From assembly GCA_965222225.1 (NCBI GenBank), contig CBDCTK010000002.1, positions 5,571,098 through 5,635,097 on the forward strand: a stretch of DNA of 64,000 nucleotides, in the 5' to 3' direction. The DNA is from Candidatus Poribacteria bacterium. Its GTDB lineage: Bacteria; Poribacteria; WGA-4E; JAJDTR01. The position numbers were made by a program, and so were the translations under genes. Under the pieces are notes generated by a model. That model worked only from the letters and a program-made list of their open reading frames with translations. It was not told the origin of the DNA and made no database searches. This document shows, piece by piece, positions 156 to 61,191 of the stretch (the first letter of the stretch is position 1; each line of letters begins with the position of its first letter).

Positions 156-192
156 GGGATCTCTATCGTAGTCGCTGTTCGCTTCCTAGATC
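156..192 (+). repeat. 37-bp dispersed unit
   Basis: GGGATCTCTATCGTAGTCGCTGTTCGCTTCCTAGATC. Confidence 0.75.
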
Positions 193-237
193 TTACCGGA
201 TTCCCTATATTTCTAAATCTACGATTATTTCGGCATT

Positions 238-1530
238 TCAGGCATATTGAAGATTGTAGAAAATGTCCTCTCCTCCGAATAGCGCCTGTTCACCGAGTTC
301 CTCCTCAATTCGTAACAATTGATTGTATTTGCACGTCCTATCCGTTCGACAGAGCGATCCGGTTTTGATTTGCCCAACATTTGTTGCGACGGCAACATCT
401 GAGATTGTTGTATCCTCTGTTTCTCCAGAACGGTGTGAAATCACGGCTGTGTAGTTGGATCTCTTTGCAAGTTCGATCGCGTTTAGCGTCTCGGTCAAGG
501 TGCCAATCTGATTTAACTTGATAAGAATCGAATTACCGATGCCCTGATCGATTCCCCGCTGCAGTCGATTTGTATTTGTTACAAAAAGATCGTCACCAAC
601 GAGTTGAACTTTATCTCCGATAGCGCGTGTCAACATTTCCCACCCATCCCAATCGTTTTCCGCCAAGCCGTCTTCAATTGAGATAATCGGATATTTTTCG
701 GCCAGCGTAGAATAGAAGTCAACCATCTCTTCCGAGGATTTATCGGGTTTGACCTCCGCTTGAAGTCGATAGGTGCCATCGTAATAGAATTCACTTGAAG
801 CGGGATCCAATGCTAACAAGACATCTGAACCTGGAGTATAGTTAGATCGTTCAATTCCCTCCATGATTATCTGTAATGCCTCTTCATTTGATCCGAGGTT
901 TGGTGCGAATCCGCCCTCATCACCGACAGCAGTATTGTAATTTCGTTCGCGTAATACTGTCTTCAGATTGTGGAAGATTTCCACACCCATACGCAATGCC
1001 TCGGAAAATGAGTCGGCACCCGTCGGCATAATCATGAACTCTTGAATGTCCACATTATTGTCCGCATGCGATCCGCCATTCAAGATATTCATCATCGGGA
1101 GCGGAAGCTGCTTCGCATTGGCGCCGCCGATATATCTATAAAGCGGTAGCCCAAGATTGTTGGCGGCAGCTTTAGCAACGGCAAGAGAAACACCCAAGAT
1201 TGCATTTGCGCCAAGTCTTCCTTTATTTGGTGTTCCGTCAAGATTAATCAGCGTTTGATCTATGGCCGTCTGATCGACCACATCGGAGCCGACCAACTGC
1301 TCGGAAATAGTGGTGTTGACGTTTTCAACCGCCTGTCTCACTCCTTTTCCGAGATAGCGGGCGGGATGAGCATCACGAAGCTCCACCGCCTCGTGTTCCC
1401 CGGTTGATGCGCCGGAGGGTACGGCTGCTCGTCCCACTATGCCTGACTCTAATCTAACGTCAACTTCAACCGTCGGGTTTCCTCGAGAATCCAATATTTC
1501 GCGCGCGCGAACGTTTTTTATTTTTGTCAC
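238..1530 (-). CDS. eno: Enolase (phosphopyruvate hydratase)
   Basis: [33 protein letters not shown] and [10 protein letters not shown] motifs. Confidence 0.98.
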
Positions 1531-1732
1531 TCAATCCTCCACATACAGATTTTAGCGAATTTTGAATTAGTCAACTAGATGGTTTATGCGACGTGCTGCT
1601 CGCGCGGATTGACCACTTCATCGGTCAAAGGCTTGGATTTGGCAATCCTATCCGAGCGGAAAACACAATTATGAGTGTCTCGCATCCGGCCGACCATTAC
1701 AGATTTTAGTGAATCTTGAGGTAGTACCTTTC

Positions 1733-2428
1733 TCATTCCTCAATCACAAACTCAAAGAGGAGATACGAACTCGCTAGAAACACAAAGCCGTAGATGACCA
1801 ACATCGAAATCCAAAATTTCTCCTCAAGCCCTCCCGTCGTCAGTAGTGATACGGTACATTTCGCCCCAGCCATGATGACAGGAAATATCAATGGTAGCAG
1901 GATGACGGACAAAAGGCTTTCCTTACCATGCGTACTGGTAGAAATGCCCGAAATCGTCACACCAACCGCGCAGAAGCCGAGCGTACCCACAATGAGCACG
2001 CCGATTAGTTTTATTAATGTCCCTAGCGTCAGCATATCCAGTGCGTCCAAAAATTGAAGTGCGACCGGTGTTATTACCGCCTCCAAAACAGCGAGGAGGA
2101 TTAGATTACTCACAACTTTGGACAGATAGAGATTGCTCGGATCGACGCCCGTTAATCTAACTCCGTGTAACGCCCCATTTGCACGTTCAACATCAAAAGA
2201 TCTGTTCAACAAGATAATCCCCGCGAAGGCAAAAGCCGCCCATAATACACTTGCAGCGAGTTTTCCTCGATCTTCAACGTCCTGGGGGAAGATGGGCCCG
2301 AATGCAAGACTAAAGATTAGCACTACAAGCACGCTGAAAACGAAGATTAGAACCAAAGTGTCCTTCGTGCGAATGAAGAGCGCAACATCTTTGCGAACTA
2401 GCCAACCGATTTGACGAAATCCGTTCAT
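1733..2428 (-). CDS. ccmB: Heme exporter protein B
   Basis: About 6 TM segments, LLNRSFDVERANG and LLSVILLPLIFP motifs; overlaps ccmA. Confidence 0.88.
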   Translation of the reverse strand: MNGFRQIGWLVRKDVALFIRTKDTLVLIFVFSVLVVLIFSLAFGPIFPQDVEDRGKLAASVLWAAFAFAGIILLNRSFDVERANGALHGVRLTGVDPSNLYLSKVVSNLILLAVLEAVITPVALQFLDALDMLTLGTLIKLIGVLIVGTLGFCAVGVTISGISTSTHGKESLLSVILLPLIFPVIMAGAKCTVSLLTTGGLEEKFWISMLVIYGFVFLASSYLLFEFVIEE

Positions 2429-59184: not shown

Positions 59185-60141
59185 ATGTTTAACAGGAATC
59201 GAATCAAATTTTTCCTTCTAGTCGGACTAACAACCGGGCTGGTTGCGTTGGCAGGAGGATGGGCACTCACTCATGAGGACCATTGGTATCCTTCGAGATG
59301 GGGCGCTGACGATCAACGCGGAGCGGCAAACCGCATCACATCGGCAAAGATACTGGAAGCGGCTACCCTGATTAAAGAGGGTAAGATTTATCAGTTGGGT
59401 AGAGTCTACGAGGCGGGTATGCCGGTCTTTGGTGCACGTCATTACAGTTTGCGTATTCCCGTGATGTCAGGGCCCCTGGGTGAAAATAAGATTACATGGT
59501 TCGAGGAGATTGTCAGTGGCGAGCTTGGACAGATTGGCACACAATTCGATGGACTGGGGCACGTCGGTATTGGCGACCTCTACTATAACGGTTTCAACCG
59601 TAATGAGTTTGTCAAGCCTGAGGGATTGGTGAAAATCGGTGTGGAAAACGTCGGCGCCTTTGTGACGCGGGGGGTACTTGTCGATGTCGCCGGTTATAAA
59701 GGTGTTGAACATTTGGATGGAGGCTACGAGATTACTGTTGCCGATTTAGAGGGCGCTCTTGAACGCCAAGGAACAATGATTACGCCCGGCGATGTGGTTC
59801 TCATCCATACCGGTTGGGGTAAATTCTGGATAACAGATAATGAACGCTTTAACGCTAGCGAACCCGGCATCGGTCTGGGAGCGGGCCACTACTTGGTTGA
59901 CAAAGAGATTGCCATGGTCTGTGGCGATAGCTGGGGGGTAGAGGTGGTACCGAATCCCGATGAATCGCTGGCGTTCCCCGTGCATCAGTTGATTCTACCT
60001 AAAAATGGCATCTACATTCTTGAAAACATCATCACCGAGGAGTTAGCGATGGATAAGGTGTACGAATTCGCTTTCGTCTTCGCACCGCTGCGAATCAAGG
60101 GCGCTACCGGCTCTCCGGGCAATCCAATCGCGATTCGGTAA
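59185..60141 (+). CDS. Exported cyclase-family (KynB-like) protein
   Basis: GGAGG RBS, signal peptide, WGADDQRGAAN, GTQFDGLGH, TRGVLVD, GDVVLIHTG and GATGSP. Confidence 0.9.
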   Translation: MFNRNRIKFFLLVGLTTGLVALAGGWALTHEDHWYPSRWGADDQRGAANRITSAKILEAATLIKEGKIYQLGRVYEAGMPVFGARHYSLRIPVMSGPLGENKITWFEEIVSGELGQIGTQFDGLGHVGIGDLYYNGFNRNEFVKPEGLVKIGVENVGAFVTRGVLVDVAGYKGVEHLDGGYEITVADLEGALERQGTMITPGDVVLIHTGWGKFWITDNERFNASEPGIGLGAGHYLVDKEIAMVCGDSWGVEVVPNPDESLAFPVHQLILPKNGIYILENIITEELAMDKVYEFAFVFAPLRIKGATGSPGNPIAIR

Positions 60142-60262
60142 ACACTGGTCAAGGGTTTAGAAAACCGAAAGTTCTGATCCCTTGAGTTGTGTTGCCAGCT
60201 GGCGTCGTGGCGGCGCGCGCGTGATAGCTTGCGAATCGGATTCTGGCACGAGCGAGGGATAG

Positions 60263-60925
60263 ATGGATCGAATTTTAGAGCCGGAGGTGATGGATTCCTT
60301 CGAGGACGCCGAAGCCTACGACGCGATGGATCATACCGAGGTCAACATCGCGTTCGTAGAGCGCGTCCTTGAACTTGGGGCGGGGGAAGGGCGCTTCTTG
60401 GACGTGGGGACGGGACCTGCAGCAATCCCAATTATGTTAGCACAGCGACTACAGGCGGTTGAAGTCATTGGAATTGACCTCTCTCCGAACATGCTGGAAC
60501 TGGGGGATTTCCATATTACCGAAGCCGGGTTGACCGATCGGATTACGTTGGCGCAGGCTGACGCGAAAGACTTGCCGTATCCAAGTCAGTTCTTTGATGC
60601 CGTTTTATCTAACAGCATAATCCACCACATTCCAGATCCGCTGCCTATGCTCCGTGAAGTTAGCCGAGTCATTCGCTCGGATGGGTTAATCTTGATTCGC
60701 GATCTGATACGCCCTAAGACAACCGAAGCTGCTTTAGGGCTTGTGGAGCAGCATGCTAGTGGTGCCACGCCCTACCAGAAGAAACTGTTTTACGATTCTT
60801 TTCTTGCCGCGTTCACCATTTCCGAAGTTAAAGACATGCTAGTCCAAGTGAACCTGCCCGGCACAGCTGTCGTTCGGAGTTCGGATCGACACTGGTCAAT
60901 TGAGCGTCCTACGGAAAAGGGTTAA
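60263..60925 (+). CDS. Class I SAM-dependent methyltransferase
   Basis: RILEPEVMD, LDVGTGPA, GIDLS and FDAVLSNSIIHH. Confidence 0.92.
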   Translation: MDRILEPEVMDSFEDAEAYDAMDHTEVNIAFVERVLELGAGEGRFLDVGTGPAAIPIMLAQRLQAVEVIGIDLSPNMLELGDFHITEAGLTDRITLAQADAKDLPYPSQFFDAVLSNSIIHHIPDPLPMLREVSRVIRSDGLILIRDLIRPKTTEAALGLVEQHASGATPYQKKLFYDSFLAAFTISEVKDMLVQVNLPGTAVVRSSDRHWSIERPTEKG

Positions 60926-61154
60926 TCTAGGTGGCAGCCGCGATTCCGAAATGAGAGGGAACGAAGAGCAAACGAAACGTCTCTTTCCATTCTTGGGAAG
61001 CGTGGATCGTTCTTGGTTCAAGGCGGAACACCAACCTTGTCCACGATTTTTCCTCCATATATAGTCATTCACATTCATATTTACACATACTTGGAGATTT
61101 AACGATTGAAGATTGTTACGATTGAGCTCGCTCCTACAGATGACGCGCAATAAA

Positions 61155-61191
61155 GGGATTTCTATCGCAGTCGCTATTCGCTCCCTTAATC
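61155..61191 (+). repeat. 37-bp dispersed unit
   Basis: GGGATTTCTATCGCAGTCGCTATTCGCTCCCTTAATC. Confidence 0.85.

Follow-up and report, generated by a model that had tools for sequence, protein, structure and literature searches.

A 37-nucleotide hairpin repeat of Candidatus Poribacteria that inserts into other hairpin repeats and may be a REP-like single-strand DNA micro-element

The movement of DNA repeats too small for coding, such as single repetitive extragenic palindromic sequences (REPs) and the small dispersed repeats (SDRs) of Nostoc, is still unsettled. REPs, bacterial interspersed mosaic elements (BIMEs), and REP doublets forming hairpins (REPINs), together with the REP-associated tyrosine transposases (RAYTs), are described as a system of short (30 to 40 nt), high-copy, extragenic repeats (PMC3333891, PMC3116915). 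In the same descriptions, the repeats are imperfect hairpins with compensatory changes and obligatory non-paired bases, of which one strand is read; they form clusters by insertion in or beside existing repeats, without target duplication, in genomes that carry RAYT-like genes. All of these features recur in a unit of 37 nt that is scattered over a 64,000-nt stretch of a Candidatus Poribacteria genome (here called the window), which lies on the 5.64-Mb contig of the two-contig source genome G000. In its workings the unit is REP-like, and in its behavior it resembles the SDRs of Nostoc, yet it fails defining features of each. We read it as a non-autonomous, REP/SDR-like micro-element of Candidatus Poribacteria that would be moved in trans, as single-stranded DNA, by a Y1 enzyme of the HUH class, and we give this reading a probability of about 45%.

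SDR1 to SDR8 of the Nostocaceae, the work of Elhai and coworkers in 2008, are said to be units of 21 to 27 nt that form hairpins with compensatory changes, are self-nested, and keep to a narrow clade. The unit resembles the SDRs, as these are reported, in being very small and dispersed, in its compensatory hairpin, in self-nesting, and in lying inside other repeats and mini-transposons; it differs in its phylum, its length (37 nt, not 21 to 27 nt), its unrelated sequence, and in that an RNA intermediate is not favored for it. Among HIP1-rich cyanobacteria, no SDRs are described outside the Nostocaceae in PMC5861425. A second comparison is offered by the IS200/IS605 insertion sequences and the palindrome-associated transposable elements (PATEs), which share with the unit a single-strand logic, recognition of hairpins, no terminal inverted repeats, no duplication, and a replication-linked orientation as set out in PMC6006769. 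Unlike these elements, with their left and right subterminal hairpins and fixed target of 4 to 5 nt, the unit has one hairpin per 37 nt and variable left flanks, and 1 to 4 target nucleotides are lost.

In the window, the 14-nt head of the unit (GGGATYTCTATCGC, up to two mismatches) has 16 matches where 0.87 are expected, and none of 100 shuffles reached 16. Read singly, the sites comprise 11 full 37-nt copies (starting at 156, 3564, 11741, 11859, 14744, 27883 on the minus strand, 57110, 57196, 58838, 58907, and 61155), a 38-nt variant at 56882, host copies split by an insert at 11703, 11729, and 56859, and orphan 5′ stubs at 58810 and 58826. These are the positions given in an earlier note on this DNA, and all were confirmed; a degenerate copy at 3699 is added here. 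A minus-strand match at 47630 (14 nt, two mismatches, within an open reading frame [ORF]) is probably due to chance. A profile built from the 11 window copies, which the earlier note had suggested for scanning the genome and its relatives, gave 872 nhmmer matches in the source genome at E ≤ 0.01 and 1482 at E ≤ 10. An ungapped census, which allowed up to four mismatches at constant columns and excluded gapped and strongly decayed copies, counted 884 copies (plus strand, 400; minus strand, 484). As many as 761 of them are distinct 37-mers, and the commonest exact 37-mer occurs 19 times genome-wide. The location outside genes claimed for the window copies extends to 770 of the 881 chromosomal copies, though only about 18% of the chromosome is intergenic, but not to the remainder; the gene set behind this count, and behind those on orientation to genes, is a crude one from a longest-ORF caller, not an annotation.

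The unit is abundant in a narrow range of relatives. Among 41 related genomes, the full pattern (up to three mismatches) has 503 to 1121 matches in each of the nine other species of the genus, 3 in the sister genus, and 32 to 37 in four species of one genus of another family; it has none in the remaining 26, and the reversed pattern, as a control, has none in any. A 31-nt core (up to two mismatches) occurs in 21 of 176 genomes of the phylum, namely, all 10 of the genus (646 to 1375 per genome), all 4 of the second genus (197 to 215), one other (21), and six with 1 to 4. Searched against one genome per prokaryotic species, the exact pattern returned at least 100 stretches, and 80 of the 80 titles among the matches listed read “MAG: Candidatus Poribacteria bacterium.” Plasmid and phage collections contained no match, Rfam had none at gathering or E ≤ 1 thresholds, and the literature searched held no description of the unit or of Poribacteria REPs.

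The unit folds on the complement of the consensus strand, where it reads GATCAA-xy-GA-zw-GRATA-w′z′-GA-y′x′-GCGATAGARATCCC and forms an irregular hairpin of ~28 nt followed by a conserved 9-nt 3′ tail. From the foot upward, three invariant pairs that can close the hairpin (A2-T28, T3-A27, and C4-G26) are followed by an internal loop, and then two helices of 2 covarying bp each, separated by a tandem G.A/A.G, lead to the GRATA loop. The tandem G.A/A.G, mostly in a Y-GA-R context, is the complement of the invariant TC/TC of the consensus. The interior had been noted to vary at set columns; it is variable but not free, as its dinucleotides covary as two 2-bp helices. In consensus coordinates, the column pairs 15-31, 16-30, 19-27, and 20-26 are Watson-Crick in 68 to 93% of the 884 copies. 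Among the cells of these four pairs that are not Watson-Crick, 400 are A.C or C.A and 60 are G.T or T.G on the consensus strand, an excess that puts the wobbles, and hence the folding strand, on its complement.

Over the 761 distinct copies and four pairs, 94.3% of cells are standard pairs on the folding strand and 84.5% on the consensus strand. Column shuffles gave 59.3 ± 0.6% (0 of 500 reached the observed value), and slid partners gave 21 to 56%. The 140 distinct copies from other genomes are paired in 95.4% of cells versus 65.8 ± 1.2% in shuffles (0 of 500); both sides have changed in 199 cells, where 32.4 are expected, and double changes are found in every one of the four pairs. Of 300 sampled copies, 264 are more stable as the complement when folded with RNA parameters (−5.06 versus −3.13 kcal/mol), and DNA parameters give the same outcome for 223. 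The stems occur in 220 combinations, and the association of outer with inner stems (chi-square P = 2e−61) indicates lineages rather than random stems. The covarying hairpin and its folding strand had been missed by the earlier note, as had the fact that most targets are other hairpin repeats (REPs). Unlike the stem of a REP or REPIN, this one contains a tandem G.A, and the GT[AG]G that precedes the hairpin foot in REPs is absent: the folding strand starts with GATCAA, and the one similar word, ATAG, lies 3′ of the hairpin.

Insertion was studied by searching both 45-nt flanks of every unit against the source genome and taking flanks that are adjacent elsewhere as an empty paralogue, which exists for 130 of the 884 units. 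At the best empty place per unit (n = 130), the host letters lost at the filled site are C (22 cases), CGC (18), GC (14), TGC (12), G (11), TTGC (8), TC (6), ATGC (6), CG (4), and others (22), along with 7 overlap artifacts of tandem copies. The replacement is of 1 to 4 nt and usually ends in GC or TC; the gap is zero in one pair, and none of the 130 pairs shows a target duplication. The claim that insertion leaves no target site duplication and removes a few base pairs (1 to 3 in the earlier note) is thus upheld with a slightly wider range, and in 82 of 130 pairs the loss goes beyond what microhomology with the unit's own end letters explains. In about 30 of the 130, the lost letters match the unit's own end (TC, or C after the 38-nt variant). 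Both empty/filled pairs first proposed from the window are correct: the first, GGTGCGCAG-TGC-GCACC, has intact forms at 3624 and 56955 and a filled one at 58907, and the second, CTAT-CGC-CTTCG, is intact in 56882-56919 and filled at 11741. The unit had been held to be neither a miniature inverted-repeat transposable element (MITE) nor part of a CRISPR array, and neither view needs revision. It differs from a MITE in the lack of duplication in 130 pairs and of terminal inverted repeats, with only GATC recurring at both ends, and from a CRISPR repeat in its irregular spacing and dispersal over the chromosome; a crude screen found no CRISPR-like arrays related to it.

The commonest neighbors of the unit, in the comparison of flanks, are arms of other hairpin repeats. 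In GTAG-type REPs, it enters the loop at the apex or on its 3′ side (GGTGCGCAG^TGC^GCACC, GGCGGGGCAAG^ATGC^CCCGCC, and GCGCAATAAA^TTGC^GC) or the arm three nucleotides in (GGT^GC^GCAG). Another site lies directly ahead of the hairpin of an IS200-type end module (ACCTGT^CGC^CCC), and three lie in the unit itself (TCTAT^CGC, CGCNN^TC, and, in the loop, TAT^YC). Entry into the loops of other REPs and into itself at fixed positions, with 1 to 4 nt replaced, and junctions that follow no C^T rule distinguish the unit from REPs and REPINs. The 121 filled sites with a non-negative gap form 71 site classes, and one site may hold several stem alleles (4 alleles in 4 copies at GCAAG^ATGC^CCCGC and 3 alleles in 11 copies at CGCAG^TGC^GCACC), which argues for repeated independent insertions and not for a single composite copied many times. 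Some composites are clearly amplified by carriers as well; the largest identical sub-families have common flanks and hence ride on carriers.

Nesting of the unit into itself, also recognized in the earlier note, involves 104 of the 884 copies, which lie inside another unit in the same orientation; 14 lie in the opposite one. Hosts that are broken in the stem have two halves that keep complementary stems, so that these are true insertions. Breaks within host units are concentrated in the foot of the hairpin, its G.A internal loop, and its apical loop (host positions 11-13, 15-17, and 22-24). Outside full units, there are 352 orphan 5′ boxes versus 409 orphan 3′ parts, a balance that speaks against polar truncation; 75 units have a 5′ stub without the remainder. 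In the relative G005 (locus L017, reverse-complement 3383-3491), three units form a head-to-tail array with a period of 36 (...TTGAG/GGGATC...), in which a unit has been inserted at the extreme 3′ end (TTGA^TC) of another unit.

The copies and associated features of the window are as follows, where the strand is that of the written consensus and the folding strand is the opposite one.

156..192, plus: full unit with 4 mismatches at constant columns, 46 nt past the stop of ORF 238-1530 (minus)
3470-3646: composite repeat of ~175 bp, present in many copies, that includes unit 3564
3564..3600, plus: full unit before an IS200-type end hairpin (CTATATACTGTC/unit/CCACGCTGGGGC)
3624..3646, plus: empty GTAG-type REP hairpin, GGTGCGCAGTGCGCACC followed by CTACAA on this strand, with the GTAG tag on the other
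3699..3735, plus: unit-like but degenerate copy that overlaps the final codons of ORF 3706-5370 (minus), absent from the earlier list
11703..11724, plus: triple nest, 5′ part (22 nt) of the outermost host, with its 3′ remainder at 11801-11812
11729..11740, plus: triple nest, 5′ part (12 nt, AGGATTTACTAT) of the middle host, with its remainder at 11778-11800 and CGC lost at the break
11741..11777, plus: triple nest, innermost full unit
11778..11812, plus: triple nest, 3′ remainders of the middle (11778-11800) and outer (11801-11812) hosts
11859..11895, plus: full unit
14744..14780, plus: full unit without mismatches, within the divergent spacer 14453-14969; absent from the matching place in the 7 other species compared
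27883..27919, minus: full unit, the sole minus-strand copy of the window
56714..57020, plus: MITE-like carrier of ~307 bp with terminal inverted repeats CTAAGCTCGACTTTGTGCA and TGTACAAAGTCGAGCTAAG
56859..56881, plus: first 23 nt (5′ part) of a host unit whose loop is broken (TAT^), with its remainder at 56920-56931 and matching stem halves (AC..GT / AC..GT)
56882..56919, plus: variant unit of 38 nt (GGGATCTTCTATCGC...), lying in the loop of that host
57110..57146, plus: full unit before an IS200-type end hairpin (CTACATACCTGT/unit/CCCGCTGGGGC), with CGC in the empty form
57196..57232, plus: full unit followed by the 3′ arm and tag of a REP (GCGCCCTACAA), of the commonest identical sub-family, from which it differs at the first base
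58810..58837, plus: two 5′ stubs (16 nt and 12 nt) without matching 3′ remainders
58838..58874, plus: full unit before the remnant of an IS200-type end hairpin (CCACTCTGAGGC)
58907..58943, plus: full unit in a GTAG REP (GGTGCGCAG/unit/GCATCCTAC), with TGC of the empty form lost
61155..61191, plus: full unit in another REP (ACGCGCAATAAA/unit/GCTACTAC), with TTGC in the empty paralogues
REP target sequences: GGTGCGCAGTGCGCACC and GGCGGGGCAAGATGCCCCGCC

Within the MITE-like carrier at 56714-57020 lie the nest (56859-56931) and an empty GTAG REP (56955-56977). Ends of such elements, with terminal inverted repeats of ~19 nt (CTTAGCTCGACTTTGTACA), were also seen at 11559 (left end) and at 58979-58997 (right end).

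The small replacement at hairpins could have arisen without a dedicated transposase, if a hairpin (REP or unit) stalled replication or was cut in its loop and the resulting gap of 1 to 4 nt was filled by a polymerase that took another unit as its template and then switched back (copy choice). Such a replication or repair patch would account for targets that are hairpin loops or feet with few host nucleotides lost per event, for the clustering of host-unit breaks at the foot, G.A internal loop, and apical loop, and for the ~30 of 130 pairs in which the lost nucleotides equal the unit's own end, as microhomology predicts. It is also in line with an orientation that tracks replication-type skew and with the lack of a cognate enzyme, both described below. 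However, end homology fails to explain the loss in 82 of 130 pairs, left flanks bear no likeness to the unit, and every insertion is a whole unit with exact ends. The occurrence of different unit alleles at one site with one and the same deletion fits an enzyme better than accidents, and neighbors are only weakly enriched in identical alleles (0.077 versus 0.041). We regard this explanation as unlikely, if far from negligible.

Comparison with syntenic relatives suggests turnover of the sites. Positions 1-20000 of the window are syntenic in nine other species, with genes 77 to 90% identical, and none of the five units in this stretch stands at the matching place in those species, as read from the unit positions with two spacers compared in detail; the other species carry units at different places. 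This bears on the possibility that the unit has no mobility of its own and is a structural motif useful to the host, such as a binding site or structural signal under selection (a role that has been proposed for some REPs), whose copies have spread mainly through gene conversion and by hitchhiking on carriers, both REPs and MITE-like elements. The compensatory changes that preserve the hairpin in ~95% of cells, the age and diversity of most copies (761 distinct 37-mers among 884), the shared flanks by which the largest identical sub-families appear to be carried, and the lineages implied by non-independent outer and inner stems would all suit such a motif. Against it stand the 71 site classes with empty counterparts and the reuse of one site by different alleles, the destruction of the host hairpin by self-nesting, and the five unmatched sites just mentioned. 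Nor is there a favored position or orientation relative to genes (271 sense and 245 antisense), and the distribution over 21 of 176 genomes of the phylum is patchy. A host-useful motif is improbable as the explanation of the unit.

The orientation of the units links them to replication-type GC skew. The predominance of the plus strand that was first remarked upon (14 of 15 copies) holds in the window, where one full copy is on the minus strand, but not genome-wide (400 plus and 484 minus); it is a local expression of orientation domains of 50 to 100 kb. Neighboring units are co-oriented in 183 of 278 pairs at 1 to 5 kb and in 156 of 238 at 5 to 20 kb, an excess that fades by ~200 kb, and 527 thinned units form 201 runs versus 258.9 expected (z = −5.2). 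Other genomes, sampled as 8-kb stretches, show agreement in orientation for 60 of 81 neighbors more than 300 nt apart. At distances below 100 nt, adjacent copies are co-oriented in 111 of 131 cases, in contrast to the inverted doublets of REPs and REPINs. Local hopping was considered as a cause of the domains and set aside, as the signal is weak (same-allele pairs, 0.077 at 1 to 5 kb versus 0.041 genome-wide).

Unit orientation is correlated with the gene-only, strand-balanced GC skew (rho = 0.58 in 52 bins of 100 kb and 0.61 in 81 bins of 50 kb) and not with gene-strand bias (rho = 0.02 and −0.06). In spacers between co-directional genes, the folding strand is sense in 271 cases and antisense in 245. 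A link to transcription was rejected on these two grounds, and the strand asymmetry for which the earlier note had suspected replication is supported as one tied to replication-type GC skew. The 373 callable intact GTAG REPs have the same polarity as the units (rho = −0.49 versus consensus-strand bias), a relation that also holds for the 766 units lying farther than 150 nt from every intact REP. Moreover, the CCTAC tag of a REP follows within 14 nt of the unit in 213 of 884 cases and GTAGG precedes it in 35, which identifies the folding strand of the unit with the GTAG strand of REPs. The GTAG strand is the one that RAYTs read according to PMC3333891.

The best DnaA match (C2:2610389-2610874) adjoins the minimum of the cumulative GC skew, at which the prevailing orientation of the units changes from minus to plus. 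Under the customary rule, this would make the folding strand the lagging-strand sequence, located on the leading-strand template. The skew of contig C2 changes sign many times, at ~0.75, 2.5, 3.25, 4.0, 5.25, and 5.5 Mb in 250-kb bins, a pattern suggestive of numerous inversions (or mis-joins) in a chromosome laden with repeats; as the chromosome has probably been much rearranged, this strand assignment is tentative. We also found a second strong match to the Bac_DnaA domain (135.8 bits) at C2:602775-603212 (plus strand), far from the dnaA-like gene at 2.61 Mb.

A strand-specific fold on this presumed template calls to mind integron attC sites, whose bottom strands are reported to lie on the leading-strand template in chromosomal integrons. 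The unit could be recombined as a folded single strand by a tyrosine (or serine) recombinase that recognizes an irregular hairpin by its shape, with the choice of strand set by unpaired or non-canonical bases. Like attC, it combines a variable sequence with a conserved, strand-specific folded strand that has fixed irregularities, here non-canonical pairs, and its folding strand is on the presumed leading-strand template. Unlike attC, it has no R″/R′ cores (RYYYAAC / GTTRRRY), is not found beside cassettes, and is much shorter, dispersed, and self-nesting. Furthermore, recombination between shared cores would neither delete 1 to 4 nt nor give an unpermuted insert, and no recombinase is linked to the unit, although none was searched for. 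An attC-like route is quite improbable.

Candidate enzymes are few in the source genome, which has five matches to Y1_Tnp and one weak match to RVT_1. The latter, an AbiA-family abortive-infection protein at C2:4499560-4501572 (minus strand; TIGR04499, 290.7 bits with a cutoff of 250), has no unit within 1.5 kb. It is the sole RVT_1 match of the genome, and no candidate enzyme was found for the RNA-mediated spread that is reportedly the proposal of Elhai and coworkers (2008) for the Nostoc SDRs, in which a transcript of the unit would be copied by a reverse transcriptase and the product patched into DNA. The folding strand does make the better RNA hairpin, tandem G.A pairs are a common RNA motif, and orphan 5′ stubs exist (75 units). 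On the other side are the distance of the only reverse transcriptase from any unit, the absence of polar truncation (352 5′ boxes versus 409 3′ parts), an orientation unrelated to the direction of flanking genes, and the lack of an Rfam match. We find this route very improbable, and the suggestion of a patch templated by a reverse transcriptase, which the earlier note had offered as one of two options, is not supported.

Its other suggestion, a substrate of an HUH/RAYT-like system, is the idea that fits best, albeit one for which no cognate enzyme was found. The Y1 protein Y1a (157 aa; C2:3080255-3080728, minus strand) is of the IS200/IS605 type (NF033573, 65.8 bits versus a cutoff of 55), is present in all 10 genomes of the genus, and has a motif, YIKNQ..HH, that fits subclass 1.2 of PMC6006769. 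This subclass is described there as low-copy, generally without the typical IS200 terminal structures, and uncharacterized. Y1b and Y1d are RAYT-like, with their best match to NF047646 below the NCBIfam cutoff. Y1d and a broken gene, Y1c, are flanked by GTAG REPs; beside Y1b, no repeat could be seen.

Y1a and a remnant copy of it are flanked by inverted units, an arrangement that would suit a cognate transposase, but this was rejected as direct evidence. In the 24 Y1a-homologous loci compared, the conserved flanks are GCCCCnnnGGGGC-type hairpins. In every genus, the flanks of Y1a and its homologues (L022 to L045) are inverted hairpin modules of the GCCCCnnnGGGGC or GCTCCnnnGGAGC type that are themselves dispersed repeats. 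Units flank Y1a only because they sit inside its own GCCCCnnnGGGGC end hairpins as inserts. Among six close homologues, the downstream hairpin holds a unit in three (G000, G001, and G005; CACCTGT/unit/CCCGCTGGGGC) and is free of it in three (G002, G009, and G004; CACCTGTCGCCCCTCTGGGGC). A likeness between the CTAT..CGC box of the unit and the end module of Y1a (CTATACACCTGTCGC) is too short to count as evidence.

A strand-specific fold, insertion at hairpins with a small replacement, an orientation shared with the REP strand, and a replication-type asymmetry are together best fitted by single-strand cutting and joining by a Y1 HUH enzyme, and it is in this sense that we infer both the single-strand DNA chemistry and the enzyme class. 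Y1 enzymes are encoded in the source genome (one of the IS200/IS605 type and two RAYT-like). An enzyme of the IS200/RAYT kind would act in trans on the unit as single-stranded DNA, or would have done so until recently; it would anchor on a hairpin and cut and rejoin single-stranded sites nearby. The unit would be pasted at exposed positions in or next to another hairpin, be it a GTAG-type REP, an end hairpin of the IS200-like gene, or another unit. Two close cuts in the target would remove 1 to 4 nt, usually ending in GC or TC, and carriers (REPs and MITE-like elements) would then spread the composites further. A precedent is TnpA_REP of E. coli, which is described as binding the REP, cutting single-stranded DNA at loosely specified sites on either side, and exchanging strands (PMC3333891). 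Its authors propose that the use of different cut sites at excision and at insertion creates variants (PMC3333891).

Several observations weigh against movement by such an enzyme. None of the Y1_Tnp and RVT_1 matches of the source genome could be tied to the unit, and the flanks of Y1a to Y1d give it no counterpart of the cognate RAYT that REPs flank. Y1a homologues occur in 7 of 7 genomes of a genus that lacks units in the set, and Y1b is found in 3 and Y1d in 5 of the 41 relatives. The unit has no GTAG tag, forms no inverted doublets, and is a single hairpin, and its junctions lack both the C^T rule of E. coli TnpA_REP and the fixed 4- to 5-nt target of IS608 and ISDra2. Its polarity, with the folding strand tentatively on the leading-strand template, looks opposite to that of IS608 and ISDra2; IS200/IS605 elements are described as acting on the lagging-strand template (PMC6006769). 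No circle junction and no strain-level filled/empty polymorphism were seen, though short-read contigs break at the repeats, and with 761 of 884 copies distinct there is no sign of a recent burst.

With modest probability, the unit moves by a new mechanism. In the boldest version, which we hold to be decidedly unlikely, the unit would represent a new class of single-hairpin, single-strand DNA micro-transposon, in which the target hairpin gives the second “end” to a dimeric Y1 HUH enzyme, a target segment of 2 to 4 nt is replaced rather than kept beside the insert, and the mover could be the orphan IS200-like subclass with the motif YIKNQ..HH. This subclass (1.2) is described as otherwise occurring mainly in Cyanobacteria and Bacteroidetes, with no assigned role (PMC6006769). 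If this were true, subclass 1.2 would gain a function, the puzzle of how SDR-type repeats and single REP-type repeats move would be answered, and the unit would be among the smallest mobile DNAs known. Poribacteria genomes offer hundreds of copies for such questions, with exact filled/empty pairs, the signature of tandem G.A and wobble pairs, reproducible hairpin targets, and a replication-linked orientation.

Small selfish repeats are layered, unit in REP in MITE-like carrier, in the genome of an uncultured sponge symbiont. The layering breaks short-read assemblies at every copy and may drive the rearrangements that the patchy GC skew suggests. Short-read (Logan) contigs of four runs stop at the repeat clusters of the window, for example, at 56717, 57265, 58844, and 59014, and these clusters attract short-read contigs from the whole genome; the contigs yielded no usable filled/empty allele and no start or end of an RNA. 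Joints between repeat copies in such contigs were left uninterpreted, and the near absence of cover over 46094-47734 in three runs was not taken as a finding. Metagenome scans yielded no empty alleles of the sites at 14744 and 27883, which, as the collection may lack the organism, is evidence neither way.

Other features of the window were recorded alongside the unit. A tmRNA gene lies at 23364-23720 on the plus strand (RF00023, 207 bits), and a thiamine pyrophosphate (TPP) riboswitch at 35006-35107, also plus (RF00059, 63.5 bits), precedes ORF 35301-37244. Repeats with a period of 126 nt occupy 61635-63868 (plus strand) within the open-ended ORF 61440-63998; judged by this period and by conserved words, they look like those of a WD40-type repeat protein. 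A separate repeat family consists of G/A-rich tandem words of 8 nt (GGAAGATT / GGAAGGAT ...) and is found at several intergenic places, at 29811-29938, 37236-37310, 55674-55716, and 56543-56577.

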